DNA of 64,000 bases from the NCBI GenBank assembly GCA_003971905.1, contig RSEE01000022.1, positions 124,001 to 188,000 on the forward strand, read 5' to 3'. This stretch comes from Moniliella sp. 'wahieum' (lineage: Eukaryota). The position numbers and the translations under genes are program-made. Below are positions 1,266-64,000 of the stretch, one piece after another (position 1 is the first letter of the stretch; the number at the start of each line of letters is the position of its first letter). The notes below the pieces were generated by a model, which saw only the letters and a list, made by a program, of their open reading frames with translations, did not search any database and had not been told where the DNA came from.

Positions 1266-1554
1266 CTTGACGGCTTGGTGGTGCTGCAATGGTAACCGCT
1301 GGTTCCCTCACGGACTGATCGGGCGAGGACGGAAATGAATAGGGTTACGGTAGCGCTGCGGCATGCAGTGCCGCCATGCCTACTTTATGAAGAGTTTAAT
1401 GTGAACTAGCGGTGAAATGACGGTTAGGGTTTGGTTATGTCACAATTGCACCGGGCTGAGGAGCAGGTGTGATGTCACAGTGACATGTGAGCGCGTGAGG
1501 CTGAGGCCTGAGCCTGAGGGTCGCAGCACTCATCATGTCACAAGGAATCATATA

Positions 1555-2647: not shown

Positions 2648-3651
2648 CAGAGTAGAGATTAGAGGCTGGGCCTTTTAGAGCCACGAGGTGACTGGTACGT
2701 TTGGCCAAAAATGCCTTCGGTCACTATCATACGGTCCCAGATCTCACAGCAAAGCGTTCATTGCGGCAGAGGATGTATGTTGGAGGCATATGAGTGGGAG
2801 GATGTGTCTCAAAAATGGGACTGGCTGTCCCAACAGGTCAACTGGTACAAAAATGAGAGACAAATCGCATGCATCACACCTACTGATATTTCAATGGGGC
2901 CCCGCCTATCGATCGCCTATCATCCATACATCATGCATCATCATCAACAATCCGCGCACGCACTGCCCCCCTGCCGCCACCCCACCAGCCCAACTGGCCG
3001 CACAGCGTCACTGTGTGCGCCTAAAGTACGCCTCGCATGCCAGGCACTGGCGCTGTGCCCGGCGGGCCCAGCAGTACTCCGAGGACCTGAGCGCCTGAGC
3101 CTCGACCACGCCCGCTCCCTGCCACATAAAAGGCCTGCACGCCGCCATCTGGCCATCTTCTTTCCCCACCACCGCCTGCCTTCATCCTGCGACGCCGGCA
3201 AACGACACAGCATCTGCAATGACCCCGCTCAAGTCGTCTGCCTTCTCCCGCCGCCCGCGCGTCGGCCAGCTTGGCCCGCGCCTCAAGCAGGCCTCCCGCA
3301 CAAGGGGCACAAAGCCAGCACCCTCCTCCGTCCTTGCCTTATCCCTTCCCTCCCACGCCCGGCGGCCGCGACGCCGTTGCTCCCCACTCTCTCCCTGCGC
3401 CGTCCGCTTCCGATGCCCCGGCCGATTTGCAGTCTGCCACGCCGGCGCCATGCCACCGGCGCTGTTCCTCTCGGACGCCTGGTGGCGCAGCAGCACCACC
3501 TGCCGCCATTGCCACCCCTTCCAGGTTGTACCCGCCACTACGACCCCCCTCCCGTGCTGCGAAGCGCACGAATGAGAACGTCTTTGCCACTTTTGGTACA
3601 CCGCACCCAAACGGCACCAAGTGAAGCATGCTCGCATCTCTGAAAACCACA

Positions 3652-10337: not shown

Positions 10338-10439
10338 CCATTTCCAATTTCTTCGTCCCGAGCGTCTCGCTCCTTGTCTTTCTTCGCTTCGCCCATGTCC
10401 TCTGCTCTTGCTTCTTCCCCACGACAATTGCTACATCCC
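10338..10439 (+). repeat. Dispersed non-coding repeat A (inverted copy at ~55461-55567)
   Basis: Shared core TCCCGAGCGTCTCGCTCCTT..GCTTCGC..TGTCCTCT..TCTTGCTTC.TCCCCACGA..TGCTACATCC. Confidence 0.8.
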
Positions 10440-10744
10440 TAGGCCTAATCCCGCTCTGGTCTCCTCTCATCGCTTTTTAGTCCCGGCTGTGAGACACGGG
10501 TGCTGCGCTGTGTTCCGGGTGTTGCTGGTTCGGTGTGGTTGCCTTTTTCTTCTCTTCAAGCTTCAAGAGCTTCAAGCTTGAAGCTTGATCGGTCACCGGT
10601 CACCCCATCTGTTTTCACCTTCTGTCCGCGTCTGCATCCGAACACGATTACCTCGTCGTCCCCTACACTCCTCAGACTGCTGGGGCAAACGGCTGCTGAG
10701 AGCTCGCTCACTTCCCACTCTGTTGAACGTTTGAGACCCGGAAT

Positions 10745-10990
10745 CCTGTGACATGTGATGGCCCTCGACGGTGATGCAATCGCATTCGTGTGGTGGCCAA
10801 CAAAGCCAAGCAACAAAACACCTACAGAGGTACAGCAAGCAGCCAGCAGTCGCTGTCCGGAAGCTATAATAGGCAATTAGCAGGCTTGGCGCTGAGCGGA
10901 ACAAGGAAGCAGAGGTGAGAAAACAACGGAATTCCTACGCCTGAGGCCTGAGAGGGAATGAAGTAACACACGACGAAAGCCACCCAGTGG
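10745..10990 (+). repeat. Dispersed non-coding repeat B (inverted copy at ~26640-26850)
   Basis: Shared blocks GCCCTCGA.GGTGATGCAATCGCA, CCTACAGAGG.ACA.CAAGCAGC, GAAAACA.CGGAA.TCCT, CCTGAGG, AGCCACCCAG. Confidence 0.8.
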
Positions 10991-11804
10991 CTCAGCACAC
11001 TCATCCAGTTCCATCACCATCCAGTAATTAGCAGCTCAGCCTGAGCGCTCATCGATCTTATCGGTCTCTTATCGCTTATCATACGTCACACGTCACATGC
11101 ATCATGCGGAGTGCACCATATGTTGCACCGGTGCTGAAATGCAAACTCCCATCATGCATTGGTAGCCTCGGCCCCTGACCCGCTCCTCTGACCGTCTGTC
11201 TGAGATCTGACCACCGCCAGTGGCGCAGTCTAACCTACTCTCTTGATAGATGAGTGTATCCTCTGGCAGAGAGGGTTACGTTTTCATATTAGCTGCGTCA
11301 ACTGCGAGAAGGGCTTCGGCCGCACGAGAAGACTTTTTGTTTGCACGTTCGGTGAGCGTATTACACCAGCTGTCCCGCGCGGCCCGATGAGAGGGGTGAC
11401 TATGAGGTCGGAGATGAGGGAAACAGAAACTCATTGGATGAGGAGTGGTGCCAGCGTGGGCACGTAAAGCAGACCACATGGCTACATGATCAGATCACGT
11501 ACCCACCCTCTTTTTCTCTCTCCGTCTTCTCTCCCCTCCTATGTCTACCAGTCTGCGTCTTCGGACTTCTCTGAATGAACACACCTCTCTCACTTCCCCT
11601 TAACAGGTTGAGCCCACAACTTCTGCTGGCAGACTTGCTCGCCACTCGCTGCCAGGCCCATGCGTACACTGTGCACACGTGAGTTGACCAAGGCTAGGGT
11701 AATACGTGATCGTAGGGGGAAACACACAGATACTGATGAGGGGACCAAATGGGGGTGGGCGAGAGCGTCAGAATTCGGAGTGAGAGTGCCCCACAGCTAC
11801 CTAG

Positions 11805-19410: not shown

Positions 19411-21394
19411 GGCAGGCTCGGCGGGCAGCAGAGGCGGTGGAAGAAAAGACAGGCGAGGCAGCCCAGAGGCGCACGAGGTGCGGCTGCTGCGTGCCGCCTG
19501 TGTCGCGCTGTGCCGCCCGGGTGCTGGCGTGCGCTCCGGCCACCGCGCCACGGCGCCAGCCTCGCCCACCCGGGCCTTTCCGCACACTGGCGCTGCGCTG
19601 TGCCCAGCCAGCGCAGTCCACTGCGCGGCACCTCGCCAGTCTTACTAATTGGCCCCAGCAGTGGCACCTGCGCGACGATGCCTGAGCTGAACTTTGAAAC
19701 CGAAGGGGCTGTGCAATTGAAACGGTCACGTGGTGGATGAGCTCAGCGGCGCCCTGGGCACCTGGTCCGATCTCAGATCCCAGGATCCCTCAGGGCCTCC
19801 GTATACTCAGTAGCCCAGACCTCAGCCTCAGGTCGCCCCCATCGTCTGGAGAGGCGCACCCCCTCCCCCTCCCCCCCGGCACCAACCTCCGCCGTCGCCG
19901 TGCCCGCTACAGATTACGGCTTGGTCCAACTTGCACCCGCACCCGCTTGTGCTCGGCCGAGCTCTTGCCCCCGACACAGACTGCAACCAGTAATTAGGTC
20001 GCCACTCTAGGCGTACTGCCCTAAAATACCAATACATGGCATGTGTGCATTCTAGAGCTTGAGATGACTGTGCGGTTGTGCCAGCGCTCCTGTGGATCCC
20101 GTCCAGCGCCACCAGCGACCATTATGGCCTGCTCTTCCTGCTTTCAATCAACTCAATACTGGCTTCAGGCCTCAGGCGCCTCGGTGCTCTTCTGGAAAAC
20201 ATGTACTACCGCAGCTCCGGAGGGTCGCCTCCACACCTCAACCGGCAGCACAATGTGCAAGAGTAATAACTAACTACCTTTGTCACCCTGTGCCACCCAG
20301 CAAAAGTGCTTCGCCCTCATAATCTGACTACTACTGTTTTCTCCCCACAGCAGCCCGCACCTCTCTTTTCTTCCACACTGTGTCGCATAGTGGCCCCAGC
20401 AACCAACAAAGCGGACAACCAACAACGCGGACAACCCGGACAATCAAAGCTGGTACTGTGCTTCTTCTTTGCGCTGTCCCAGGCTGCCCCCCTCTGCCCT
20501 CCTAGAGGAAATAGGGTCTTCTGATAGCGGAAACAGTTTCATGACAGCAGGCGGTCTCTGTTATAGTTATTCAATGATTAACTTGGCAGTCCAACAAATG
20601 ACTGGACAAAAAGACTTGGCTGCATCTCTGATCGATCTGGTCATTGAACTCAAAACTGACCCCACGCCCCCACACTCGAGACGGCAGACGAAATGAGCGT
20701 CATGCATTTCTTGATGACTGTCGCACGCACTCTCTCGAGATGAGGTCTCACTGTGGCAGAGGCAAAAACATGCAGCGATATAACGCGTAACGATCTGAGC
20801 GTTCAGTCGACGAGTAAGTAGCCCCAAAAGAGCTGTTTTCTTGGGATTATCATGATAGGATCAGAGAAGGGTGTTTTAAGAAGTAGGGGGGCTGTGTGCA
20901 ACTGGGAGTACACACGCTTTGTGGTTGGTCAATTCTCATCAATAAGGTGCTCCATCTGGTCATCACAGTCGTCTCCTAAGGCCTGGCTCAGATATATCAG
21001 GCCTCAGGGCCTCAGGCCACATCGACCTCATCGGGGCGAATGTAGGGATGGATCCGCAGACCAATCAACCTCTGTGTCTGTTGCTGCTGCCATCTTAGCT
21101 GGACGCTGGCGCTGAGCGCTCAGTGAGAGTCCGCCGTGAACCTGAATAGCCTGAGTGGGATTCGCAAGTGCGGGGTTTAATATTAACAAACTGGGCAGGC
21201 ACTGCGCCCCTTATCAGCCCTTACCTCATCAACGTTCAATGTTTAACAGGCTCTCATCGATCATCGATCATCGCATCGCCAGCCCCACACTCGTATTTAA
21301 AGCACAGCCTGCTGGGGAAAGGCGCTTAGCATCCCCTCTTCATCCCCACCATCTCGCCCCCAATGGAGCACCTCCCGCCTCCCCAGACCCCACC

Positions 21395-22052
21395 ATGGTG
21401 TTTCGTGTGCCAGCACACAGCAGTTGTCCAAGTCTATTTCTACTTACGAGGCACGGTCGGCGTCCTATGCCGATGCTGCTCGGCCAACCTATTGACTGGC
21501 CCCCCTCATGTGACTACGCTCGCCGAGCCTTATGGGCTTTACGAGGCCAGCCTATTCATTTCGGACCTGCTTGAAGAAGCCGAAGAAGAAGAAGAAGTTG
21601 GGCTTGGGGAGCATTACTATTCGTGGGCCCAACGCGCTCTCAACCGCTGGGCAGCGGGCAAGCTGTTGGAGAAACGAGAACGGCGCCGGTTTCAACGGGA
21701 GCCCATTGTCGCCTGAAAACGAATGTGGACCTTCGCTTCCCATTATTCCAACCTAGTGGAACCAAAAACACGGGATCATGTTCGATCTGCTTGGAGGATT
21801 GGCCACGGTTACCGACGTTCTGGCCAACCCTGTAATAAGCCCATCCAAGCAGCCATCCAACACACTTTCATTTCCGCAACAGCCAAGGACCGATTACCAG
21901 GGGATGTGCAAATGCTTGAAGCCGATGAATGGGAGCAATTGCAGACCAATATGAAGCCTCGCTTCCTCCTACCCCTCAACCGTCCGCTTTCAACACCATT
22001 CTTAACACGGCAACCCTGCTTCTCCAACACGGCCCCCCTCTTCGGAAGTTGA
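21395..22052 (+). CDS. Possible small degenerate RING-H2-like protein or relic
   Basis: TATA-like TATTTAAA ~21294, broken ORFs with CSICLEDW..PC..HTF; the remaining ligands are not clear. Confidence 0.3.
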
Positions 22053-23628: not shown

Positions 23629-24830
23629 CGTCCATTTCATTGGCAGACTTAAGAAGGCTGGGACAGGGGAACGCTACGTCTAAACCTAACCGTTCATCTT
23701 GCGGGGGTTACTTAGGGCGCCACCAGGGTCAAGGAACCAGGGGGATCGCCAGGATATCAGGACCCTCCGGCTCACGCCATCCGGCCCGTACCCTAGGAGC
23801 GCGTATGGACACGGAGGAACGTGGTTAACATCCGAGCGAGGAACCATTTCCACTGAGACTTAGTAGCCAACTCCTTCCAATGCGCAAACAACTTGCTCGC
23901 CGTCTTGGTGCCGTAGTATCCTCGCGTCGTCAAAACCAGGGGGAAAACGTCTCTTGAGTGCGTCCCTGGTACTTGGCGTTCTTCTGCATTCTGCTTGTTC
24001 AAGCATCCGAAGCAGCTCCTTCTCTCCCGGCGTTCCAAGGGGGTTGCGGTGCTCGCATGCACCACCCTCCGGAACGCGCTCTGCGCTGCCAGTGATCCCG
24101 TGTCGCGCAGCGTGTGGTCGACCTCCATTCCGAGCCTCCGAGTGCTCCGGGTCCCATCATGCGGTAGTCAGTGCGCTGTGTCCTCTGTCTCCGGCCATCC
24201 TCGTCCTCCACCATTGGTTCGTTGTGGACATGGTGTCGGGAATGGAGCGTAGGAGCTGGAGAATGGGCTCCCGCACTGCGTCATGCAACGCTCCAAACTT
24301 GGCCTGGGAGCGAGTGCAATACATGATGTGCTCCAGCGAGGACATGACACCGCACTTGCACATGCTGCGCGTGGTGCGGCACAGCGTGCGGAGCTGGAGA
24401 CCAACCTGGACCTGCTGGTCGGAGAGCCTGAGGTACGGGACGGACGGAATGGCGGAAGCCAGTTGTGGCTCAGCGGTTGCTGTGCTCAACCACGTGACGA
24501 CCATCGGCAGCTCCAGCTTCTGGAGCAGCTCCTGTCGACTTTCTCCCACATCTCGCGCAGCGCTGGCTGTTTTGCTTCGTAAATGCGTTGGCCTCTGCTG
24601 TTTTGCGGTCCCGAACGGTCAACATAAGTGGTAATAAGATAGTCGTTGACCTCGTTGGCCGCGGCACGGGCGTGGGGCGCGATATACGAGTAGAGCGGGC
24701 TGCCGAATCCTCCTAGCCGGAGAGGCAGGCTCATGAGCATGTCGAAGTGGTCGTCCTTGGCACCTTGGGGATCCTCGTCGCCCCGGATCCGTCGGAACTC
24801 CGTACAGATGAAGGCATCGATCTCGGCCAT
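23629..24830 (-). mobile_element. 5'-truncated CRE/R2-like non-LTR retrotransposon (copy 2, longest)
   Basis: LPLRLGGFG, CKCGVMSSLEHIMYC, LHDAVR, RTDYR, MEVDHT, PLVLTTRG; short A-tract beyond the 3' end (T-run 23600-23606). Confidence 0.85.
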
Positions 24831-26639
24831 ATATCTAGAGCTTTCATCTCACAACCCACACAGTCTCAGCTCCATCAATCCATAACCCGCCCCAGTTCCG
24901 GTCTCAGACCAGCTTTGTCTCCCCCTCTGTATCTCTCTGACGAAGAATACTACCTACCGCACCATGTCATGCGCAAGAAGAGAAGTGGAAGAGGGTATGG
25001 CTTACGGTGAGGGAGTTGGGGGGATCAGTGGATTCTACTGTTGATACAGCGGATGCATACGCCTCTTTGGCTCAATGGTAAGGCGTCGCACTCGTAATGC
25101 GAAGATTAGTCGTTCGATTCGGCTAGGAGGCATTTTTTCCCCCTTTTTTTTTGGGGGGGGGGGTCGGCCTTGGATGAGGAAACCCAATAAAGAGTCGTGT
25201 CAAACCCAGGAAGGAGTTCGTCCAAGGCAGAATATTACGGCGATGAGAGTACCAAACAGCGTCGAATGCGTTGTATGAGTAGCAATATCGTGATGACACT
25301 GACGCATTGAACCTCCACGCGACCGACGCGTCTGTTGTTTGTGTATACTCGACTCTCTCTCCGCTCCGCTGGTCCACTGTGTCAGGAAAACGGGCAGTAA
25401 AAAGCCCAACGGAGCTTAAGCGATCACTTCGCCTTCCTGGCTTCGACCCCAAGTTGGTTGATGACCAACAGTTATGCCGTCTCGTCCTTGTTGGAGTTGA
25501 AGGTGAGAGAGCGGATTATTGTGGATCGATATGATAATGCCTGCTCAGAAAGGCGTGAGGATCGTGTCAGACTCACGCCGTGGATCGGATGCGAGCTCGC
25601 GGTGGCCAGCGCAACCACCAGTGCTATCACCTATATCACCAGGCCTATTACCTATATCCCTGTTGCGAAAATAGTCCCTTTTTGCCCTCAAGTGGATCGA
25701 TAATATAGCCACGCATGTGGCTACCGAATTGTCAGTCTCCTTGCGACGAAAGGCGCCCCGTAATCCTGTTTACCTTGACTCTCTAGGTTGCCCGTGCGGC
25801 AAACCGTTCCTCTTGTTTCCTCCTGTGTCCCCCGTTCTTCCTCTATTGCCTCGTTCCCCTATTAGTCCCTGTCTGTAAGCAATGGTTCGTGGTTTTCCCC
25901 CACGGTCCATTTTGGTGTCTCCCCCTCTACTGTGCCTGGCCAATGATTGATCAACCCACAGTGCAGGTAACTTCTCATCTAAGTCCCTCCCGGGCCCCTC
26001 GACCTTGTCCTATAGCTCCTCTATTCCTCTCTCAGCTTCTCAGCGAACCAAGCCGCGTGTGCCCTCCTCGCTCCACGTCGAAACCAAGTCCATCCGCCAC
26101 ATGGGTCCCCTTTCCAGCCGGGCCGCCTCCAGTCCCAGCCGAGCTTCAGCTCTGGTAGTGTTTGTCCTCCGCAGCCAATTCCTGTCCGTTATCTCCCGCG
26201 GATGCTTCGACACAACGCTACTACTGCGCAAAGCGGTGCTACGCAGCTTTTTGCAGACCTACAGCCTCCTCTGCTATCTATACGCCGAGAGGCCATTCCT
26301 TGCTCCTATAGCCCCGCTTGGACACACCAATCAGCTCATCAAAAGGACGTAACGATAACCATGAATTGAGAACCGAAGAACCTCCAACGGATTGTACCTA
26401 TAACCTCCCGAACGGGCCCCCTGACGGTGCCCGCCGGTGATTCACACTGTGTGGAGGAGCACTGCGGCGGATGTGGGGGGGGTTGACGGGTCTCGATCTG
26501 ATGCTCAAATCCGGAAGCTCAACTCAGATCTCACTTCTTCAGGTATTGCGTCCATAAATCCAAATTATTCAAGCTTTGAAAAGCCAAAACGAGCGGATCT
26601 CATCTCTTGGCCGTGTATAGTACTTTGGGGAGGTTCTGT

Positions 26640-26850
26640 TGAGCTGGGTGGCTCGTGCCTTTGGCCAATGCCCCTTCAGTTCTTCCTCAGGCCAAGGAGT
26701 TCCGCTGTTTTCCCTCTCCTGTTTTTTCTCATTGTCCTGCAGCTTAGCCCCTGATGGCGACTCGCTGCTTGATGTTCCTCTGTAGGCATTGCTGGTTGCC
26801 ACACCACCACCACCAGTGCGATTGCATCACCTTCGAGGGCTATCAGGACC
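26640..26850 (-). repeat. Dispersed non-coding repeat B, second copy
   Basis: Reverse complement aligns by eye with 10745-10990. Confidence 0.8.
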
Positions 26851-27389
26851 CCATACAGGTCTCATCTCACAGGTTCTATCGTCCCACACTTTGTCGCTCA
26901 AGCTTCATTTATAATGTAGGCTGGAATGCCGAACCTTCAAGAAGCTAATAGGTCACTGCTAGGACCTGCTAGGCCTCAGATTAAGCCAACAGGCTCACCC
27001 TGGTCCCCCACAGGGCGATGGCGAGCCCCGGTAGGTTGGTATACTGAGAGACTCAGATATATTTTCAGGACAATTATTACGTGATCGGTGACCTCACTGG
27101 TCAGGCCCTATACATGATTCAGATATCAGAGAGCGAGATAGCGCACGGGTTCTCGAAACTTATTACCACCGTGGCCGAGGCTGCCGGAGGGCGATAAAGC
27201 TTAAAGGGACTATTTGCTATGACTATGTGAGAGAGACGTGAATTGCGGGTAGTCTCGTGCGAACTGCGTTGGCGGCAATTTCCCGACGATGAATTTCATT
27301 GCTCGGAGCAATTAACTGTGTCACATTCTCCGCACCGCTCTTGAAACATCCATGTCCACAAACATATGTATATCCACAAAGTACGTACA

Positions 27390-28980
27390 AGTTGTACTCT
27401 CAGATCTCAGATCTCGTATCTCAACGAGATTCTTTCAAATACTAGTACCACGCACTCTTGCCTGCTCTTTCATGCATCTGTGCATCACAGTATGAGTATC
27501 CACACAGACGTTGCACAGTAGATAACGTCGGTAACGCGGGTGCGCAGAGGTTCTCTGCATTCCCCACGTAGACGCTCCCGGACGTTCGCTGCTTTCTGAT
27601 GTCTGCGTGGTATTTTTGATTACGCGTTATTACGCGATACGCTCGGGTTAGTACGCATTACTAGTTACTAGTATAGGCCTTAGGCTGGAGCCCCAAGCCT
27701 CAGGGACTTACGCGTCTAACGTGGGCTGCTGTCTGCCTGACAAGTACTCAGCGTGTACTCATCTGCATCAGTACACCGTTAGTTAGTATCCCGTAGGTAG
27801 GCGTCAAAGGACTATACAGGGATCGATTACTGATGGATGATGGATGACATGATGCATGATCGAGACAATCGATGTCACGATCACGCAAACCTTCATGCAT
27901 CTGTCGCCCAGTCACGCAAATCAACCGTCGGACGCTGGACGACTAGTTAGCCCGATTAGCGCTTAGCCGGCCTCAATTCAACATTCGTAATTCTTGACGC
28001 ATGAGGCCGAGGCTATGAGGGTGGCCCAGTGGCTACTGAAAAAGAGAAGTAAGGTTGTGCTCAAGTCCTTCAAGACTATTGGTGCTCAGGCGCTCAGGCG
28101 CTCAGGTGCGGTGTGACATGTGCATGTGAAGTGTGTTGCCCCGCGGGCATCTCTTCGTGTGGCGTTTTAATACTAGTTGCTGCACTCCACTGTAAGTACT
28201 AACGCTACTATATCTGCCCCGGCATGCCTGCGGAGCGGTGATGTTTGTTCCAAGCGGCGGGCACAACGTGCAACGAACACCGGGTACAAGGCGGCCGGAG
28301 CAAGACCGAGCGACGGCAGGCGACGGCAGCAGTCTTGGATTGTGGTGAAGAAGGGTGGAGACAACGCCTTCGTGGATTTTGCTGGAGAAGTTGACCGGGT
28401 GATGAACGCGTCCGTGACGCATGTGACGTATGAAATGCATGATGCACGACGTGTGATCATGTGATAGTGCAATAGCCACATGTGACGCGTGACGCTCGAT
28501 GCTCGATGCATGATGCTATATGATATATGACACATGGCGCATGACGCGTGACGCATGACGCGTGACGACCCACTTGCGGTGCCCCGGCAGGACGCAGGAG
28601 GGCCCACCAGCTGCACCGCACTGCGCTCGTGCCTGCTGAGCGTGCTGTCCTGTCACATTTCAAACTGTGCATCGCACCGCCGGGGTAGCACAGTCATATT
28701 TTTTTTCCCCGTTTTTTCCTCCACGCCGGCCCCCAGGCCGCTCTGATCCCGCCGGCAGCGATGACTGTACTGCACCACTCCCGACGGGCACGGCGGGGGT
28801 GGGCAGCGCTTGAGACGTGCCCCCAGTGCCCTCACCTCAGTCTTCCTCACGCGTCAAGCGCCTCACAGCCGCATCCTGCGCTCAGTGCTTTTGTTCGGTT
28901 GGTTCCACCTGGCCGCCGAGCGGGAGCCTTGCAGCTTGAGCGCCAGAGCGTTCACGTTCAACGTCGAACGTTGAACAGCG
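27390..28980. repeat. Cluster of TNA/palindrome heptamer arrays upstream of the MFS gene
   Basis: TCTCAGA x2 at 27398-27411; TTA-CGCG-TTA-TTA-CGCG ~27620; TTA-CTAG-TTA-CTAG ~27658; seven in-register heptamers 28519-28567. Confidence 0.85.
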
Positions 28981-29250
28981 CACGCGGCAGCCATGCACAA
29001 GCCACTATTGGGCACCATCTGTAGACACTCGGCAGGTGCTGGAATCTGTGCTCTGGACCCCTCACCCCTCTCGCTTTTCCTTGGTCGCCGCCACACACCC
29101 GTCTACTAGCTATCTGTGCGCCTACATGCACCCCCCCCCCTCGTCGGGGATTGAAAAGGACCGACGGCTCGTGGTCAAATCCAATTTTTTCTTCCCCCCT
29201 CCCATCCGTTCCCACCACCAGTACTCGATAATTGCTGTCAACAACGGGCA

Positions 29251-31999: not shown

Positions 32000-32641
32000 T
32001 CATGTACACCCATCATCACTCATTCACCCCATTCCCTGTCTTTTCGCAATGTTTCCCCCCAACTGGTTCAGTCCCTCGTTGCCTCTCTCTGTGCTACTGT
32101 GTGCTATTGTGCTGCATTAGCTGTTTTCCATTTACTCTGGTTGCGTTTCCTGCTGTGCTATTCCTTGTCACCCTTCCCTTCAACCCGGTATCGTGCATCC
32201 CTCTTTAATGGACACTAAAACCCTGCAGTGCCCTTGGCATTACTTTATTGCAGACTTCCATACGAATGTAGTTTGTTGCCCCCCTGCGGAAGAGTGTGTG
32301 AAGCTTGAAGAATACAATCTCATGGAAGGTTCTTTTGACACGTGTCGACTCGCAGTATTCAAGACGCGGTGATCCGGGTACCCGGCACCCTTCAAGATGA
32401 GTTGGTGGCTAAGCGCGAATTGATGAGTAGTGCCCTTCTCGTTTACGTGGACGACAGAACGTCTTTGTGGTGTACAAGCCCAATCCACGATCATTAATCA
32501 TTTCTCGTTTTCATATCGGCGAGGCACTACTGGACATCAGCGATCGTCGATCGCACGGCCCTCTCCGTTATTGAATCGGCTGGTGGCGTAGTCACGCGTC
32601 ACGCGCGTGTCATGCATCCTTCATGGATCATGTGCATCATG

Positions 32642-32697
32642 CTCGCCGTTCGCTGTTCGCGATTCGCTGCTCGCTGTTCGCTATTCGCTGCTCGTTA
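32642..32697 (+). repeat. 7-bp tandem repeat (YTCGCTG)x8
   Basis: CTCGCCG TTCGCTG TTCGCGA TTCGCTG CTCGCTG TTCGCTA TTCGCTG CTCGTTA. Confidence 0.9.
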
Positions 32698-33131
32698 ACA
32701 TGAGTCACGGCTCGCTCCTGTCGTGGTCGGGAAGCGCTCACCCGTCAAGCGTGGCGTCAGCACGTCGATGCCGACCCAGGGCTCAGGCGCTCAGGCTGGT
32801 TAATTACAACCCCATTACCTCCAGCAGCGTCTCCGTTGGGTTCTGAGCCAGAGGGCTCAGGGACTAGTGAGTGCTCAGTTTTCGACTCCCCTGCGGCTCT
32901 ATCTCTCTCCGCGTGGGCCAGGCATGGAGACGGCCAAATCTTTCTCAGAATCGATTGCGATGCAACTCACCCAGGCAGGGGGCAGCAAATGCTGGGGTTT
33001 ACAGAGCACAGGGCGCGGCCATGGGCGGACAAGAGACCGGTAGAGTACAGAGCCCAGTCGGGCCAACCTTTGCTCTCATACGGACATGGAAGGTGTGGGG
33101 GGGGAGGGGGGGTGGGGGGAAGCTAACGCAG

Positions 33132-36100
33132 CTAAGCCTGGGCCGGCGCTGGGGCCGGAGAGGGGTAGGACACAGCGAGGGTGCCCTTAATGTTGTCGAG
33201 GATCCGCGCAATCTCACCCGGCACCGGGACCTGTAGCGCCGGGGCTGGGCGCGCAACAGGCGCGCCATGGTGTACAGCGTGCCCCAAGGGTGCGGGCGCA
33301 TGACCACAATCCGTTCGAGCAGGACGCGGAGGATCTGGCCTTGGACTTGGGCAGGCACGTCGGACGCCTCTGGGGTCGAGCCAGCAGGCGGGGCAGCAAA
33401 GAGACGGACGAACAGCGTCGAGGCAAACTGCATTGAGGCCGAGGGGAAGCGCAGCTGGTTGGCCAGTGCCGAAAGCAAAAGGTAGAGCGATGCGGGTCGA
33501 GCTGGGACAAGAGCAGGCTCACCACCTCCCCGGCCTTGGTTGCTGTCGCTTCCTCCTGAGCTGCCGCCACCCGTTGGCCCAGCGCTTCAACCAGGGCATT
33601 GAGGATGGGCTGAACAACCAGCAGAGCCTGTTCCTCTTCCTGCTCCTCAGTCTCGATAGGGGCAATCGTTGTGATGCTGACAAGATGGGCCACCAACGTG
33701 TCAAGCGGGGCGGGGGTAGCGTCGCTAAAGCATTTGTCGAGAAGGGCTTTGACGGTAGCCCAAACGGGGCTTGCGTTTGCCTCCAGCGTCGCTGGCGCCG
33801 AGGCGGGTTCCATCCTAGCCTCGGGCAGTAACGCCAGATCGACAGTTGGGTCGAGCGGGTCGGGGAGGCGAAGCTGGCGAGGGTAGGCACAGAGAAGCAC
33901 GTTGCGCAGCTGGACAAACTCGCGCGGGATCAGATCGCAGAGCGGGATGGCATAGAAAGCCAAGAACTCTGGGAAATCGTGCAAGAGCAGCATAAAGATC
34001 CGGATCGCGCCGAGATAAACCGACTGGATTGTCTCTGCCCGTGCGCCGACACGACGGACAAGGGCCAAGAGGCGAACTTGGGCCTGCAGCAGCGGGTAAA
34101 ACCATCCCAGCCCTGACCATCAGGGGCAGAGAGAAGATGAGGAAGGAAGGTACGGTGCGAGATGAGCGACATCCAACTGTGAGTGTACCCAACAAACAGA
34201 CTCGGCTGCAGGGCCAACAGGCTCTGTGCCACCGCCACCAGGCAGGACACGTAGCGGTTGCCCAGCCCGGGCGAGGCTTGCTGAAGCAGATGAAGAATGG
34301 AGCTGAACAGGCGGTAGAGAGCCTTGCCCGCCTCCGGCTGCGGATGCACGTCCACAAACACCAATACAATTACCAGCAGCATCTTGTGCAGCAAGCCCAC
34401 CTGGTTGCGCGAATGGAACGTGGTCAGCAGCACCACCAACTGGGCCAAGGCGTCGATCGGAGTGTAGACGGTCTGGCTCTGTTCGGCACCCAAGATAGTT
34501 TGAAGCGCATAGCCCTTGACGCACTAGGTGCAAATGCGGAGGAAGTGCGCCGTGTTGGCTTCACCCTTGAGGACCCCAGCTTCCTGCGCACGGCCAACAA
34601 ATTCGACAAAAGCCTTGTCCACGTTGACGGCCTCTTCGTAGCAAGTACCCACTGGCCAAACCAATCTGACATCACCTCACGCACTGCCGGATCGTCCAAC
34701 GTGGCCGCCTCGCCAATCTGCTGCCAGAGCCCATCGTGGATAACCGATTTAACGCTTACAAAGACACATGTTAGTCATCAATCCAACAAGAGGAAGGGAA
34801 CAACTTACGAATCACTCGCTCTTCCAGCCTCGGAGGTGGCACGAAGCATGGCAACAATGTGACGCAGCTGGGTGCGCGTCGCGACCGTCTTGGTGGCCGC
34901 CTGGACCAGGGCGGCATTCACATCCGCCTTCTCCATGCCCGATTGGGCCCACTGGGCATCCACCTCGCCGACACGGACCAGCTGATCCTCAATCAAGGCC
35001 ACCATGCAGGGCACGTGCCTCACATCCCACTGTCCATCCCCGTAGACCAACCAAGCGGCCACCTCACCTTGAGCAGCGGGTGAGAGGGCACACAAACGCT
35101 GGAGAAGAGTGACCAGCGCATTGGTCGCTAGCTTTTCCTGCGCGGGCGTCCTGTCTTCCACTGTTGTCCACAGAGAACCACGACTTTGGAGGCAAACATG
35201 AGTGCCGTCTCGTCTTTGCGGGGCTGCTGCCGGACAAGCTCCGTGACTGACAGGAGCAGCGTCGGCAGCTCATTGTCCGGCGGTAGCTGGGCCAGTGTAG
35301 TGGCTTCCTCTCCGTTGTGCGGTACGGGCAAGACGAGGAGGCGGTCAAAGTCGGATCCAAACCGGTTGAACAGCTGCAAGGCAAATGACCCGTCGGCGGC
35401 AGGGCGAGGGGCAAGAGACCGACCAAAGTCATCGTACACCCGCAGCTGCGCTGGAGTGAGACCGTCGGGCTGAAGGCGAAGCGAGTCGGCAGCGCCGAAG
35501 CATAGGCAATGTGCACACTTTGGTCTGGGTCGGCATACGGTCCCGGTCCCGCACGCGCCGCAAGATGCGGAGCAAGAATCGCATCCAAGTCGGCCACTGC
35601 CTTGTATTGCGCCGCCCGCTCAACCATCTTGCTCGCCATGTCAACGTTTTCGTTCATAATGCTCGCCAAAGCATCAACAGGCAGCGAGGTCTCATTAAAC
35701 CCGCCATTGAGGAAGATGCGCTGAGCATGCTGGACCATCGACGTGCGAGCGGATCCTTCGACGTCACGTGCGATCGACCCCACCACATCTTTGGCCATCT
35801 GGTGCGCGGCGTGGGACAACTTGGCCGGGTCCGACTCAAGGGCAAAGTCCTTCAGGACCAGTTCCTTGGCTGATAAGTTACCAATCGTGGCCGAGCGCTC
35901 CACCACGGGAGGAGTAATGTCTCGCACGGCGCGTTCGATCGCAACACACACATCCGCTTCAACGTCGCGTTGGTCGCAAACATGTTCAGCGTGGGCGGGA
36001 TGATAATCAACTCGGGCAGGGAAGCAAACATGCTTTGCAGCAGTGCCGAGTAGGACATAGCGTCCTGCTCCAGCACAGGCTCGGGATGGGTTCGACCGGT

Positions 36101-39144: not shown

Positions 39145-39246
39145 GGCCAGACGACGGCAAGGGGAGGGCGGTGGGGGTGTAGAGGGGGAGCGGCGGTGGG
39201 GGAGGAGGGGGGGCGGGTGTGGTGGGGGGAGGCAGTGGAGAGGGCG

Positions 39247-39311
39247 ATGGCAATGGCAATGGCGATGGCGATGGCGATGGCGATGGCGATGGCGATGGCG
39301 ATGGCGATGGC
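39247..39311. repeat. (ATGGCR)n hexanucleotide microsatellite, ~11 units, in NOT1 5' region
   Basis: Direct reading; lies ~100 bp upstream of the NOT1 ATG. Confidence 0.95.
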
Positions 39312-53646: not shown

Positions 53647-53833
53647 AAGCGGGCTATCTGGATACGGGCCGTCGTTGTTGGTGCAATGCAGTGGAACTTG
53701 GATTTGGGTGTTGATCGCGTAGGTTGGAAGCCGAGGTGGAAGCGGCATATTCGGCAGGTGCCGGTTCCGGAGAAACGTGGAGACGGCTCTGAGCAGACAG
53801 TTGCATCCATTTTTTTATTATAGGCCTAGGTGG

Positions 53834-54561
53834 CGTCCATATCATTGACAGAGCCTAAGGCTGGGACAAGGGGAAATGCTACGTCTATTGAAACCGAACC
53901 GTCCATCTTGCGGGGGTTAGTTGGAAGCGCCAACAAGGTTAAGGAACCAGGGGGATCGCCAGGATATCAGGACCCTCCGGTTCTCGCCATCCGGTCCCGT
54001 AGCCTAGGAAGCGCGTGTGGATACGGATGAACACGAGGTTGACATCCGAGCGAGGAACCATTTCCATTGAGACTCAGTACTAGCCAAATCCTGACAATGC
54101 GCAAATATCTTGCCCGGCGCTGTCATCTTTTGGTGCTGTAGTATCCTCTCGCGTCGTCAAAACCAGGGGGGAAAACGGCTCTTGAGTGCATCCCTGCCGT
54201 ACTTGGCGTTCTTGTCGCATTCTGCTTGTTCAAGCAGCCGAAGCAGCTCCTTATCCCGGTGTTCCAAGGGTGTCGCGGTGCTCTTCTGATGCACCACCCT
54301 CCGGTACGCGCTCTGCGCCTCCTGCGATCCCGTGTCGCGCAGCGTGTGGTTTACCTCCATTCCAGATCCGCGGAGTGCTCCGGGCCCCATCACGCGGTAG
54401 TCGGTGCGCTGTGCCCTCCGTCCGCGCCTCGTCCCATCCTCTTCCTCCACAGTAGGTTCGTTGCGGACGTGGGTGTCGGGGACGGAGCGCACGAGCTGGA
54501 GAATGGGCTCCCGCACTGCCTCATGCAACGCACCAAACTTGGCCTGGGAGCGGGTGCAATA
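53834..54561 (-). mobile_element. 5'-truncated CRE/R2-like non-LTR retrotransposon (copy 3)
   Basis: YCTRSQAKFGALHEAVREP..RTDYRVMGP..MEVNHT; 3' UTR followed by AATAAAAAAA (T-run 53810-53816). Confidence 0.85.
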
Positions 54562-57135: not shown

Positions 57136-57359
57136 ATAGTCGCACAACACGGAGCAAGGGGCGGGAGGGGACGATGGGAGACGCGCGATGGAAGAAGAGT
57201 GGAAGAAGAGCGATGGAAGAGAAGGGCTCTGGTGAGCGAGCTCTGAGGATTAAGGGGTGGGTCGGAATGCTGCGGGGGTAGGGGGGGCGCAGAGGGAGGC
57301 CAACGGGTGGATATAGAGCGTTTGTATATGTATGGTTTCTCTGGTGCCCCCGCGTGATG

Positions 57360-60300
57360 CTCAACGCAACGAACGTTGAAGTTCAACGGTCAACCGCTCA
57401 AGCTTCAAGCTCTCAAGCTCAGGATCTGGATCAGGTCCTGTGGGCAGATGGATTGAGACACAGCATGGATGATGTCCGATGACTGATGCAGTTTGCCAAA
57501 GGCACTACTCCGCTCGGCTCGCGGACTCATTCGTAGGGCGCCCCGCCATGTGATTGGGGGGGACCGGGACATACGCGGCATCCCGACCCGGCAGCTACTG
57601 GGAGGCAGCACAACGGTTAATCTTGAGACGGCCAGAAGCTCAGGCCTGAGGCTCAGGCGCAGAGGTGCTCCGCTTCGGTGTCGGCACCTGAGCCGGGTGG
57701 GCTGGACAGGGAAGGCGATCTTGACTGCATCTTTTGACTTTCTGTACGACCCTATAGTCACATCATATGTGTCTTGTGACATGTGACTAGTGACTAGTAG
57801 GGACTGCCACATGTCACACTCATCCACGCGTTTGAGATTTGAGATCTGAATAATGAATGGCTAGTAGCATTGCATTCTCCGATCTGGCGTGCATTCTGTG
57901 AATTTGCAACAAAACGTGTACTGATGGGTGGTGGCGTCGCCCTTGGTGCTGGACGCTTTTTCAGCGCAAACTGAGCGTGACGAACGGTGCTGGGAAGGAC
58001 ATACGCCACTCCAGGAAGGATAGGGGGTTGGGCTTTCCGATGCCGGGTCCAATAAGGCAAACTTGGCAGCTCTATCGGCCGACCGAGAGCGTGCTCAGCC
58101 TGAGCGCCCATGGTGCCTCGGTCACCTCTGGGGTGGCGTGGCCAAGGCGGACCAAGACGCCCATCTCCGGCACTCAGACGGGAGCCTCAGGCCCCAGGGT
58201 ACTCGATACTCAGGTGCGTGCAAGCTAACCGCGCAGCGCATACCGCCCAACCCGCCCCAGTGCCTCTGCTGCTTGCCCCCGCTCTAGCTCATCGACACGG
58301 TGGCCAGCATGGGCGAAGCGAAGCTCCGCAGGTGGCTCACCAGCGCCCCTTGCCCTGCAACCGCACGAGGGACACCTGTGGGCGGTCCCCGCGGTGCCTG
58401 GTATAGGAGCTGCTGAATGGTTAATGGGCGTCGCTGCTATGGGCATCGCAGGGCATCGCACTGGCGCCGCTGCGGAATGGTTTAATGACTAACGCGATGG
58501 AACGATCAGGTGACCAGTGACCGATCATCGATCACCGGCACCAGCCGACCCGTGAGGGGCGCTGTTGCCGTTGGCTGCTGCTGGTGGTGGTTACGTGCCC
58601 CTACTAGGTGCCAGTTTACTTGGTATTAGCGCTTGGCCAGCGTTTGCAAATTATTAGCGCTTCGCGCTTAGTAGCGCTTATTAGCGCTTCGTGTGTCTTC
58701 GCAGCTGCCATCGATGATCGATCAGGTCTCAGATGATCGATGATGTTGATGATGCCTGTTTCGGCTGTGGTGTGTGCCTAGAACCTCTGGATATCGTGGC
58801 CGGTGAAGCTGACCGTACGTGGTGGATATGCGCCCATTGCATGCCCTGTACGCCAGTAGCCCTGGGATGGTATGGTTTTGTTCCCACCACTTGAGGCCTG
58901 GTCCTTTTGAGTGATTCCCCAGAAATACGATGGTGCGGGCAGGTGGTATCTGTGTGATCTATATCTACGAGTCCCTGCGGAGTCACTTTTTGTTGGCTTT
59001 TGTCATCATTATACCCCGGAATGATATGTCCAGCAACGGCACCTCTCCGTTAATTATTGCTGTTGTATTGTTGTGGCCTGCAGCGCGCTCTCTCGACGTT
59101 GGCCCCACAGCCACACCGGAAATACCCTGCAGAAATGCAAAGCAGGTCTGAGGATCTGGAGCGAACCCTTGCTGACAATAACAACCTTAAAATGACCGCA
59201 GAAAAGGACTCGCGATGCCCTTAAAAATGTGCTTAGTAGGGTGGAGTTGTTGACCTGACCGACCTGGGTGACCGGTGACTCGGTGACTCTTTGTGTTAGC
59301 GAGGATAGACGAGCTAGAGACAGCCCGAGGGCTAGGCCCTTATTATTAAGGAGCTGCGAATGCGAAGCAAAAAGTTGCCACCCTCTAGCGCTGCGCTCAG
59401 CCTGAGCCGTGAGCTCACGCTCAGGGTTGTGTACGTTGAGTACGTTGGCTGAGGCTCGGGCTCAGCGGCCCAACGTTAATGACCGTGGTCAGAAGCAACT
59501 AGACTCGTAATGATCGCCTTGAACTTTTTCTGAACGGGGATATATTTGTCGTTTGGCACTTACACTTGGCATTAAGCTTTAAGTTTTTGAGCATACTCAG
59601 TGGCTCAGCGCTGAGGCTCAGCGCCCAGCGCGCTCAGCGCTCAAAGTGTTAAACGTTCAACATGTTCAGTACGTTCAACTTGAACGGTGTGCGTTGTGCC
59701 TTCGTCACGCGTCATGGCGGCAAGGCCCACCCCCTTCAGGCATTGCGCTCAACCAGCGCCCACAGGGCTCTCAAAAGCTGGCCATGCATCCGATATCTAT
59801 ATCAGACGACGAATGTCACATGTCAGTGCATGTCAGATATCAGACCTCCCCAGTTTCACGAATTGAAAGCACACACACCTACGTTTTCACTCGAGTACCG
59901 CCGGGCAAATACGGTCCGGATCGGGTTCTTGCCAACAGGCCCACCGATATATTTCTTTTCCTCCGATGCCCACAACCGGCTTCTCGCCGGCTTCACCGGC
60001 TCAAGCACTCAGGTTTTCAAAGGCTAAACGTGAGTCGCTGCCCATCCTATCCACACGACCGAGCTGCCGGAGGCTTCCGGGTCCATCACAGGATATTGGG
60101 AGAATTTCATAAAGGTAAGACAGGGAAAAGCTGGGCCTAGTACTGAGCCCTTGGGCCGATTTAGGCCGACAGTAAACAGGGTTCGGGCATGCTCCGACGC
60201 GTGACGCACTTGGAACATGAAGGTGACCGGTGACCGGTGGTGGTTGATCGATGATCAGTGACTAGTGACTTCCACCGATGACCGGGTCAGGGCCAGCTCA

Positions 60301-62130
60301 AATCAACATCACCTGTGGCGATACCGGGTACATACTCGGCGACAGGTGACATGTGGCATGTGACCTGTCCCTGGTGTTGTGTGATACAGATGCATGATGG
60401 CATGTGTTACGGATGCATGGCTTGTGCAGGTGACATGTGACGCGTGGCGCGTGACATGTGACGCATGAGCATGACGCGTGACATGTGTCGCCAACCGCTT
60501 CAAATCTCGATGTACCTGAAAACGTTCTATAAACTGTGGGGCGACCGGTGATTGGTGACCGGTGAGAGCCTTGGCCAACTCAGTTTGGCCAACATGGCAT
60601 TTTGAAAGACCCTATCGCCTCGGACGCTGCCAGACAGACTCTCGAGTCCTCCACGAGTTGGCGCTCTCCTGATCTACACGGCGATGGAGGTCGCGATGGA
60701 TGCTGAAAAGAGGAGCCACAGAAGGAGGCTATTGGTGTAGTCGCTGGCTTTTTGTATCTCGGCACATGTTACAGCTGCGTGTGTGCACCACCGCCTTCGT
60801 CGGGGTCCACGGAGTCTCGGAAGCAAGTGACTGTGACTGCTGATGCATGATTCAAGTGATGTATAGTAAATAGCAACTAGTAACTAGAGGGCCAGTATGC
60901 GCTACTCTACTACGTTGAACGTTGAGGACGTTGAAGCTTGAACAGCTAGTTTGAAGCCCAACAACAGACCCCACCGGTCACCGGCCTCGCTGAGGGCTAC
61001 GGCTGTGGCCTAAGAGGCCCAGCCTTGGTGTGGTCCTAGTGCACGTTCATTGTAGGCTCAGAAATATAATGGAAGCATGTTCGCAACCCATTAATAGTAC
61101 TCGTCATGTCACATGTCATACGACAATGCAGCGTACCTCAAAACGAAGTGCACATGCCCCCTCCCCGCAAGGCCGATTTTCGCCAAGCATTTCCTTCAGG
61201 TACCGCAGACCGTGGTTAGACAAGGCTGGCCGCACCGCCACCGGCCACCTATTAGCAGGCGCAGGCCAGAAACAGCCTCGTCGGGATTGTCTTGGCACTG
61301 CAATTTGCGCATTCTTAATTGTGTTGGCGGGATGGGTTTAGAAGAGGGACTCAGATTGAATCGTGAAGAAGTATTCCGACGGGTGCACGCAACATCTTTT
61401 GCACCGTGCAAGCCCGCTGAGCGCTGATGAAGCTTGAAGCTTGAAGACTCTCAATTCCTGTACACGTCAATGATCGACGACGATGAGAAATGTTCTGGTA
61501 CCCATCATCACCAACCCCCCTGCCATCACAACAAAGGCTCTGGGCGCTCAAAACCACTTTTGTCGATGGACAAGGCGTTGCTTGAGAAAGAGGCAGACGT
61601 TCGTGTAAGAATGGGTTTTCGCTCGCATCATCATGTCAACCATGCGACTCATGAGCTGATGCTTTGTTAACCGATCGTCTCAGGTACATCCGATTTTAGA
61701 GGCCACGTTGCTTCGAAGAGGAGTCAAGCCCAAACCCGCATCATGAGGGACAGAAAAGCCATACAAAAAAGCACATCTAGATACGATCGAGAGGAAATAT
61801 GCCTTTTCCTCTATCACGCTAACACTAACACACTATAGCACACACGCTGGTTCCGATGGTATATGGACATCGAGATCGAGATCTTGGAGAGCTTTCTGTA
61901 TCATAGACACAACTTCGGCACCTGGGGAGATCTGATCGATCGACCGGGCGGACGCGTTGACGGTCGACGGGGAGAAGACTTCACACACTTCATGTGTTTT
62001 GTGTGTGCTTCCCAAAAGTTCCCCCGCACCGTCTAGCAGTGGCTTAGTGACCATGGTAGACAGAGACTGTTCGGGATGCACGTTAGTTGTGCAGTGATCA
62101 CATGTCACATGTCGCATGCCACGTGACGTG
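57360..62130. repeat. Densest cluster of TNA/palindrome heptamer arrays, upstream of the zinc-finger gene
   Basis: 57775-57795, 58509-58536, 58624-58690, 59600-59690, 60222-60270, 60429-60490, 60914-60943, 61418-61444. Confidence 0.88.
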
Positions 62131-64000
62131 TATCATTGAAAGGACTCTTGTTGTCACTTTTCCCCATAACCGTTGCATCAATCGCGCGAACCACTGCGGT
62201 CCCTACTACTACTAGCCCAAATGTATAGTGCTTTCATCGACTTGTGATGCATTCGTTAGCTCCTGCGACAACATGAATCAGCGGCGTAAACAGAAAACCG
62301 TGGAGGACATACATCCGATTTGAAGATGGCCCGCGGGAAGATCGAGTTACAGAAGGACCTGACGCTGCCTGACTGATCGACGCGGCCATAATGCATAACA
62401 GCGCCGAGCGCGAACTGCAGCAAATGCCCGACTTTAACCATAAAGTCTCGCACAGCAATCTTCCGGCCACTAGTGACTCCATTTGTTGTGACGAATGCTT
62501 TTGGGATACGCTCCTCGGTGAGTTCGGTGAGTACACCGAGAAACAAAAAGGCCACACGAGGATGTGAGAACCAGAGTGCGATTGACACACGCGAGCAACT
62601 AACTTTTTAGCATCAGGGCCCAGACCTTCAGGGCCAACCTAAGATGGGAGGCAGTTAGAGTCACTAAACGAGACGGCCTCCAGGGAACAACAGTCGAGAG
62701 CCTAGCCCCAATTTTGTCACCATTTCTCTCTTTGCTGATACTGACTACTCTTTGTCACCGTCGCATTTCGCCCTCTACACCTGCACCAAACCTCTGATCT
62801 TTCTCATTTCGAGTGTCTCGCTGCCCTTGTCGATTTCGGGATGGCCTTTGGCCGTGAACTGAATGCCATTCCTAGTGAACAATTTACTGAGTAATAACAA
62901 GAATGTGGGGCGAAGGAGTAAGAGTATATATACAAGGAGAATCCACCCGTGGAAAGCGCCAAAATCGATCCCTACAATAGTCAATACCTTGGGTGTGATC
63001 AACGTGGCGGGGGCAAACTCTTATCGGACCCGACGATGATCGATGAGATCTGAGAGGCCTCGTCTCTGTGCCTTGAGTTTGACGTAACAACTTCTCTCCG
63101 GTAATTCATTAGTTCGACCATTGTCCCGAAAAGGACGGATAGGAGGCACCCGTCGTCGCTAGCAGCTCATGCCTACAAACCAGCGGCACATGTACACCTA
63201 TATGTCAGCCCAGAACAGAAGCATCGTTAAACACTTTTTGCATTCGCAGAGGGGGACAGCAAGTGAGATCTGAGAAAACACCGTATTCTCCCCTCTCCTC
63301 CACCTCCTGTGGTACGGAGAGGAAAATCCCGTCGTAAGACTAGATGACCACCATGTCTGTATTCAACCTGATCAAGACCGGTTCATGCCTGAGGCCTGAG
63401 GACGGAGTGCCAGTAGGGCTGGCTATACCATAGGTTGTACTTTGCGCCGGTACCTCGAAACGTTTTATTGACACGACGGTTGACGCGCACAGCAATGTTA
63501 TAGACCCTCCACTCTCGTGACGTGGAGATGATAGCGTGGCTAGACAGACAGTACGCGACGCTGGCACTAGGCCACTGCTATGCCTGCGCGAGTGTGCGCC
63601 TTTTCCTATTCTCCTGTGGCATGTGAGCTCTTTCGCTCTTCTCTCCACTACCGACACCGGCTCGACTCTGTACTTGGTTCGCCTTCTCCGTGTTCGGACG
63701 GTTCGGCTCCCTAGCCCGTTCAGTCATCAGTAGGGGGAATATGAGTGCCGGCCAGTTGGTCACGGTGCTACAAACTCGAGCGGCACCCACCATTAAGAGA
63801 CTTTCCTCTCCCCTTCGTCAAGAAGACAAGCGGGCACACCACCAATGATCAACAATATACTTGAGCAGTGGACTAAAAGTCAGTCTTACACCCAAGAGTC
63901 TCGTAATACAGGTCTACCACGATTGGAAGCGAATGGCGAGAGCCAGAGGGGCGGAATCCTGACCTGCTGGCGACTCAACGATCCGCCTCCTCTTTGGTTG

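Follow-up and report, generated by a model that had tools for sequence, protein, structure and literature searches.

Analysis of a 64,000-nt stretch of the genome of Moniliella sp. 'wahieum' (contig RSEE01000022.1, positions 124,001-188,000; hereafter the window, to which all scar counts refer) revealed numerous copies of a short intergenic unit, formed by a TNA triplet, a 4-bp palindrome and a second TNA triplet, in which the palindrome is copied from the neighbouring bases. These units are interpreted here as old excision footprints of a lost cut-and-paste element, or of an enzyme of the same chemistry, which would have duplicated a 7-bp target centred on TNA and processed the flanking ends through hairpins; a confidence of about 0.6 is assigned to this reading. 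An earlier note, made on the letters of the same DNA, had already described the triplets and their palindromic spacers, proposing that they are mutational scars and neither one microsatellite nor the site of one transcription factor; this view is backed by the present data, in which all 16 possible 4-bp palindromes are represented.

Counts were compared with dinucleotide-preserving shuffles of the DNA, 100 for the TNA-N4-TNA motif and 60 for the by-products described below. TNA pairs separated by a palindrome occur 94 times, against 7.49 +/- 2.75 in the shuffles, while those with a non-palindromic spacer are at chance level (127 against 125.1 +/- 12.0), which confirms the preference for palindromes suspected in the earlier note. 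The strings that it quoted at 60222-60270 and from 60431 are indeed found there, and the 12 palindrome positions that it listed are all among the motif matches, the total now rising to the full set. When palindromic spacers of 0-10 nt were compared, only those of 4 nt were enriched (84 observed, 2.25 expected), other lengths being at chance (9 against 9.05 for 2 nt; 1 against 0.62 for 6 nt). Similarly, only TNA triplets were enriched when each of the 64 triplets was placed in the same triplet-palindrome-triplet frame: TGA was found 49 times against 1.0, TCA 26 against 1.07, TAA 5 against 0.1 and TTA 4 against 0.07.

The middle base of the two triplets is identical in 84 of the 94 pairs (the same-N pairs), complementary in 7 and otherwise different in 3; the 10 pairs without a shared middle base are near the chance level, given an expectation of 7.5 pairs in all and 2.25 with the same base. 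Since the shared middle base is unpaired, TNA must be directly duplicated and is not part of a 10-bp palindrome. The 7-bp register also proposed in the earlier note is evident from the autocorrelation of TNA in five scar-rich regions (14.5 kb), which peaks at a distance of 7 bp (142 against 40.6, z 15.9), with further peaks at 14 bp (z 5.2) and 21 bp (z 4.7). Tandem duplications of exactly 7 bp were counted 33 times where 3.2 would be expected, and about 27 of them, by reading of the list, consist of TNA plus a palindrome.

The anatomy of the single scar can be seen most clearly in the 74 isolated same-N pairs. In 57 of these the identity at lag 7 runs at least 2 nt beyond the triplets on one side (binomial p 1e-37 against chance); the extension is found on the left in 31, on the right in 33 and on both sides in 7. 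The typical unit is therefore 12 nt long, T-N-A-x-y-y'-x'-T-N-A-x-y (uvTNAxy-y'x'-TNAxy with its left flank) or the mirror image, and half of the spacer is an inverted, complementary copy of the two flank bases next to it. The analogy with hairpin-derived palindromic nucleotides drawn in the earlier note proves apt. The same structure was recovered by an unbiased count in which TNA was not assumed, based on a 5-nt repeat, 2 nt that reverse-complement the adjacent 2 nt, and a second 5-nt repeat: 55 and 62 cases were found in the two orientations, against 4.3 and 4.7. Those with TNA at the outer end account for 42 and 37, against 0.33 and 0.13, while palindromic nucleotides at the TN end were found in just 2 cases. 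Right-type and left-type scars are nearly equal in number, both in the isolated pairs (33:31) and in the count made together with the by-products (42:37). The 17 of the 74 pairs lacking the 2-nt extension are about as many as decay predicts, and many of them retain a 1-nt match. Arrays obey the same 12-nt rule and often stop exactly on the 5-nt repeat.

From this anatomy we infer a series of steps involving an element, flank hairpins, a defined nick position and a direct ligation route. Insertion would duplicate a 7-bp target, uvTNAxy, and upon excision both flank ends would be sealed as hairpins. These would then be nicked 2 nt off the tip, generating self-complementary 4-nt 3' overhangs, xyy'x' at the left end and v'u'uv at the right end, each of which would be ligated directly to the recessed 5' end on the opposite side, nothing being lost or newly synthesised. 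Replication or mismatch repair of the resulting 4-nt mismatch would finally lead to uvTNA-xyy'x'-TNAxy or uvTNA-v'u'uv-TNAxy, with a net gain of exactly 7 bp per scar. With the flank as its template, the spacer may be any palindrome; moreover, since each scar places a new TNA at 7 bp from the previous one, repeated events would build in-register arrays. The suggestion of the earlier note that the scar recreates its own target, so that arrays can grow, agrees with the new TNA in 7-bp register seen for example at 57777 and 63037. Five features of the scars follow from the model: a constant gain of 7 bp, palindromes of any sequence, a middle base common to both triplets, a 2-nt extension on one side only, and similar numbers of left-type and right-type scars.

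Some rarer products bear on the length of the duplicated target. Plain 7-bp duplications centred on TNA and devoid of a palindrome were found 3 times, against 0.083 in the shuffles: CGTGAGC is present twice, centred on TGA, at 9907-9920, and similar cases lie at 11083-11097 and 57831-57845. A period-9 product, composed of a full copy, 2 palindromic nucleotides and a second full copy, was also found 3 times, against 0.0; it is represented by GGTGACT + CC + GGTGACT (9167-9182), by CTTCAAG + AG + CTTCAAG (10561-10576) and by a case at 25625-25640 that is ambiguous, the dinucleotide TA being self-complementary and the site lying inside a 21-bp tandem repeat. For plain 5-bp duplications no enrichment is seen (TNAxyTNAxy, 3 against 2.7; uvTNAuvTNA, 6 against 2.6). 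The by-products thus lend real support to a target duplication of 7 bp over one of 5 bp, although the cases are few. As for the 3-bp TNA duplication of PIF/Harbinger elements, to which the earlier note referred, a 7-bp target centred on TNA agrees better with the 57 extended pairs and with the by-products. Directly adjoining triplets, TNATNA, occur 23 times in the rich regions, against 11.6 +/- 3.4.

An 8-bp minority class is present as well, either as TNA-n-palindrome-TNA (14 against 2.4) or as TNA-palindrome-n-TNA (9 against 2.43), the palindrome being of 4 bp in both; it is compatible with a transposase of slightly variable stagger. One such variant is the array (TCAGGC-GC)n at 28084-28106, whose unit, GCTCAGGC, recurs at 9990-10005 and 32781-32796; the unit fits the scar rule (TCAGGC + GC + TCAGGC), and its recurrence at three loci is unexplained by random targets.

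The scars appear in graded states of preservation. Perfect 12-mers fitting the template number 79 (0.3 expected), those with one substitution 126 (10.4) and those with two 241 (136). A rough calculation of our own on this series suggests that the scars are old and have diverged by about 10%, that the window underwent some 300 events, and that several percent of the scar-rich DNA would stem from them; the series is consistent with neutral ageing.

The distribution of the scars is markedly uneven, as 74 of the 84 same-N matches fall in the five rich regions, where their density is 5.1 per kb, compared with 0.2 per kb in the rest of the window. The distinction from coding DNA anticipated in the earlier note is also found, 68 of the 84 lying outside stop-to-stop open reading frames (ORFs) of at least 150 aa, a depletion to be expected because a 7-bp insertion shifts the frame. 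Most of the rich regions are located upstream of genes. The region at 57300-64000, intergenic and with few long ORFs, holds 31 same-N matches (22 TGA, 7 TCA, 1 TTA and 1 TAA), while 20 are found at 8900-11300, between a PTR2-like gene on the minus strand and a BAR/PH gene on the plus strand, 14 at 26400-29200, upstream of the gene for an MFS transporter, and 6 at 20000-21400, upstream of the minus-strand gene for a V-ATPase subunit. The last region, at 32000-33200, separates the 3' ends of the converging MFS and CNOT1 genes and holds 3, and therefore scars are not confined to promoters.

Two triples are diagnostic for the origin of the spacer. In tg-TGA-CATG-TGA-CTAG-TGA-ct (57775-57795) the left palindrome derives from the flank TG and the right one from the flank CT, and the palindromes of ga-TGA-TCGA-TGA-GATC-TGA-ga (63035-63055) derive in the same manner from their respective flanks; in terms of the model, the triples at 57777 and 63037 are each one original uvTNAxy bearing both a left-type and a right-type scar. 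An array in register at 60222-60270 has seven 7-bp units, namely two of GGTGACC, one decayed, two of the GATGATC type and two of AGTGACT, with perfect TGA-palindrome-TGA scars at 60224 (CCGG), 60245 (TCGA) and 60259 (CTAG). A decayed 7-bp array, TGA-CATG-TGg-CATG-TGA..., follows at 60341-60368 (TRF period 7, 80% matches), and a further one, in which CATG and CGCG spacers alternate, at 60431-60485; the latter fits repeated left- and right-type scars on one site (~TG-TGA-CG), followed by point mutations (TGG, CGCA, GCA). At 60543-60565, in TGA-TTGG-TGA-CCGG-TGA, a perfect scar (60556) stands beside a decayed one; ACGT-TGA (60916) and AGCT-TGA (60932) scars share the interval 60912-60943; and at 61418-61446 TGA-GCGC-TGA is followed by the array (TGAAG-CT)n-TGAAG, which stops exactly on the 5-nt repeat.

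Several observations weigh against the interpretation as excision footprints. The terminal inverted repeats (TIRs) and the transposase that the earlier note had envisaged did not emerge: in the window, TIR pairs flanked by a 3-bp TNA duplication amount to two 9-nt chance-like matches, 3.1 and 5.0 kb apart, no TIR pair is flanked by a 7-bp nnTNAnn duplication, and no transposase domain is present among the 68 window ORFs scanned. Since neither an element nor a nuclease was found in the window, it is from the anatomy of the scars that we infer footprints. The product expected if both overhangs were kept, with period 11, was observed 0 times in the window, against 0.15 in the shuffles, and the preference for 7 bp over 5 bp is drawn from 6 by-product cases, including the ambiguous one at 25625-25640. 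The scars are known from one sequence, and we know of no superfamily that joins a 7-bp target-site duplication, a TNA centre and flank hairpins. Two asymmetries are unexplained. The base preceding the first TNA in 50 right-oriented scars is A in 23, against a background of 23% (p 6e-4), and this excess lacks a counterpart at the mirror position, which is not rich in T; it could reflect a target preference or a bias in overhang survival, and a bias against overhangs starting with T could be its cause. In addition, TGA exceeds TCA on the plus strand (49 against 26, p 0.011), being dominant at 8.9-11.3 and 57.3-64 kb, while only TCA is found at 20-21.4 kb; this regional imbalance may come from local growth of arrays off one founder site. 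Paralogous stretches of the window, aligned in search of empty sites, gave no informative 7-bp indel.

Among the alternatives, the one that survives best, although unlikely, is a host or selfish nuclease acting together with repair and in no need of a transposon: a staggered break at TNA, followed by fill-in plus hairpin or template-switch synthesis, would add the same 7 nt each time. Such an origin would agree with the lack of an element within the window, with the extreme uniformity of the product and with the clustering of scars in a small number of long stretches between genes, lying for the most part upstream of them, where breaks are common. However, a single staggered break with fill-in leads to a plain duplication, which represents only 3 of about 85 events, and palindromes copied from the flank between two full copies require a second, hairpin-ended break, of the kind that an excising element provides. 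Moreover, to our knowledge no nuclease has a 7-nt stagger centred on TNA.

The commonest unit, being exactly 5 + 2 + 5 nt, would also be compatible with an element that duplicates 5 bp (TNAxy) and always leaves the 2 palindromic nucleotides at the xy end, with a geometry resembling that of Transib and RAG. This explanation appears quite improbable, as it needs an asymmetric target and a one-sided opening of the hairpin, palindromic nucleotides at the TN end occurring only twice; plain 5-bp duplications are not enriched, whereas plain 7-bp duplications and 7 + 2 + 7 products are, albeit in small numbers, and the double-P product of the 5-bp model was observed 0 times in the window, with 0.0 expected.

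The location of scars in long upstream regions could instead point to selected cis-regulatory clusters, in which dimeric factors bind TGA or TCA cores kept in promoters, and TGA-containing half-sites are typical of bZIP factors. A protein, though, cannot require any palindrome together with the same unpaired middle base, which is found in 84 of 94 pairs, and a spacer copied from the two neighbouring bases, the scars of the 3'-3' gap at 32.0-33.2 kb and a decay series that looks neutral all make this origin very improbable; some scars may nevertheless have acquired a secondary use as sites.

Slippage of a heptamer, a 3-bp TNA duplication carrying leftovers of transposon ends in the Tc1 or PIF manner, and an artefact of assembly or basecalling are, as a group, hardly credible. 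The 33 exact 7-bp tandem duplications would suit slippage, but 53 of the 74 isolated pairs are shorter than two full units, only 21 reaching a 14-bp run (left plus right extension of at least 4), and slippage makes no palindromes. End remnants would agree with TNA being the duplication of the PIF/Harbinger type, as a passage of PMC4561436 has it, and with the Tc1-type layout of duplication, end remnants and duplication; one spacer per family would then be expected, whereas the spacers of the window follow the flank and include 16 of 16 palindromes, so that the Tc1 analogy of the earlier note is to be abandoned, and PIF-type elements are described in the same passage as excising precisely. An artefact would not be expected to show the graded decay by point mutations and the sequence diversity of the scars. 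The scars are neither a microsatellite nor a cluster of binding sites, nor, as far as the sequence alone allows to judge, an artefact. Two further candidates were rejected, namely a 3-bp duplication with palindromic nucleotides derived from TNA itself, which predicts spacers of the T-N' type, none of which was seen, and, by reasoning only, a Hermes-like nick offset by 1 nt with an 8-bp duplication, which predicts the spacer b'y' and not y'x'.

The closest precedent comes from the corn smut fungus Ustilago maydis. According to a passage of Ali et al. 2014 (PMC4081816), citing Laurie et al. 2012 (Plant Cell) and Schirawski et al. 2010 (Science), footprints of transposable elements (TEs) had been proposed as the origin of the many 10-bp repeats in that genome. 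The units of the window resemble them in length, as TNA + 4 + TNA amounts to 10 bp, in number, with 94 in 64 kb, and in their intergenic location; in both cases, as far as that passage goes, repeats read as footprints of past transposons are found in a TE-poor and intron-poor fungal genome. Judging roughly by this length, the scars probably belong to the same class as the U. maydis repeats. Full-text searches found these repeats mentioned only in PMC4081816, with no further description; their motif was not found in 11 of the 15 supplementary files of that paper, and PMC4824034 and PMC9603552 hold no mention of 10-bp repeats. The kind of phenomenon is known and was probably already noticed in a related fungus, and it is doubtful that the repeat class, which the earlier note did not recognise as a described one, is undescribed; the precise grammar and the mechanism that it implies may be new.

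Among DNA transposons, the resemblance to hAT elements concerns the junction. Ac/Ds footprints contain flank-derived palindromes, which are explained by flank hairpins in a section of PMC4561436. Like the footprints of Ac/Ds, Tam3 and Hermes, the scars keep both target copies and carry junction bases inverted from the flank and not derived from the element, as seen in the 42 and 37 cases with an inverted flank dinucleotide (against 0.33 and 0.13) and in 57 of 74 pairs. hAT elements duplicate 8 bp with an nTnnnnAn preference. In the window, by contrast, a period of 7 dominates (84 same-N), 8 bp being the minority (14 and 9, against about 2.4 each), and T and A adjoin the centre; furthermore, hAT footprints are heterogeneous, whereas a single product dominates here. 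At V(D)J coding joints, a perfect hairpin on the flank is cut some 2 nt away from its end, which leaves an overhang of 4 self-complementary nt and adds 2 palindromic nt to the joint. By analogy, the scars would correspond to the P nucleotides made by RAG, a relative of Transib, with the hairpin opened at a similar distance; RAG and Transib, differently from the inferred element, duplicate 5 bp, and V(D)J joints normally differ from one another in the bases trimmed and added. The window showed no gene resembling RAG or Transib.

The length and symmetry of the target recall the P superfamily, whose duplications span 7-8 bp, a range similar to that of the major 7-bp and minor 8-bp classes of the window. 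P-type excision, however, leaves long overhangs derived from the element and not flank hairpins. For Galileo, a 7-bp near-palindromic duplication with consensus GTAGTAC around a central base is reported in part of PMC2775673; the target proposed here is likewise a 7-bp near-palindrome around a central base, as in Galileo/1360, but its centre is T-N-A and not A-N-T. PIF/Harbinger elements such as mPing duplicate a TNA-type triplet and excise precisely, according to the passage of PMC4561436 mentioned above; the triplet with a free middle base is shared with them, while the repeat of the window differs in running 2 nt beyond TNA (57 of 74 pairs) and in the presence of full 7-bp copies in the by-products. 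The layout of duplication, short palindrome and duplication is also that of Tc1/mariner, as outlined in the same source, but the spacers of the latter are element ends, constant within a family, and TA is duplicated, whereas spacers dictated by the flank and TNA duplications are found here. According to PMC5225508, MULEs generate 8-9-bp duplications, and their excision is precise where duplications exist.

If the interpretation as excision footprints is true, the scars alone would reveal how long the target of a lost transposon was, which targets it preferred and by what chemistry it broke the DNA, the last being readable as hairpins on the flanks, their opening 2 nt off the tip and ligation without loss. 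They would also be a natural record of how a fungus repairs hairpins. An apparently clean, TE-poor fungal genome would then once have had an intense DNA-transposon traffic, now visible in a few long intergenic regions, and the 12-nt signature uvTNAxy-y'x'-TNAxy could be used to date and map such traffic across smut-like fungi. Should the 10-bp repeats of U. maydis prove identical, the added value would lie in the mechanistic decoding and not in the discovery. A bolder and rather doubtful extension, offered tentatively, is that a cut-and-paste lineage so far undescribed, or else a hairpin-forming nuclease that had been domesticated, swept through the genome and then vanished. Its stagger would have been of 7 bp, centred on TNA, and its hairpin opening and ligation unusually uniform, while its self-seeding scars would now account for several percent of the long intergenic regions and supply palindromic arrays to promoters; in that case the scar grammar would be a fossil record of the chemistry of the vanished element.

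The window has a GC content of about 56%, long ORFs and few introns. The genes identified in it code for CNOT1, an MFS transporter, an RCC1/ankyrin protein, RPL18, PTR2, a BAR/PH protein, a V-ATPase subunit, ATG2 and a GHMP kinase. The MFS transporter is placed in fungal clusters of the Atlas as a 'fungal-type MFS'; its closest relatives have 83% and 79% identity, followed among the named ones by proteins of Ascosphaera (47%), Tilletiaria anomala (46%) and Sporisorium graminicola (43%), so that two of the three closest named relatives belong to Ustilaginomycotina (Tilletiaria anomala and Sporisorium graminicola), while three metagenomic matches have 35% identity each.

A dispersed repeat of about 1.1 kb is present in three degenerate copies, at 1548-2648 (-), 23666-24736 (+) and 53833-54561 (+), which are about 80-95% identical in blocks and differ by many 1-2-nt indels. 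It has no match in Pfam and no family in the Atlas; one motif led us to guess that it may be a retroelement, which is purely an assumption. The non-coding stretches that hold it (22-26 kb and 54-56 kb) contain zero scars, and the repeat may be younger than the scar-making activity. One of its copies is adjoined by a tRNA gene at 25061-25132 (+) (Rfam RF00005, 57 bits), besides which the Rfam scan of the window gave nothing. Finally, a perfect GGCGAT hexamer array of 11.5 copies is found at 39243-39311, inside long ORFs that overlap one another where the divergent region of CNOT1 and ATG2 has its 5' end, and G-rich repeats of 23-25 bp neighbour it inside the same ORFs.

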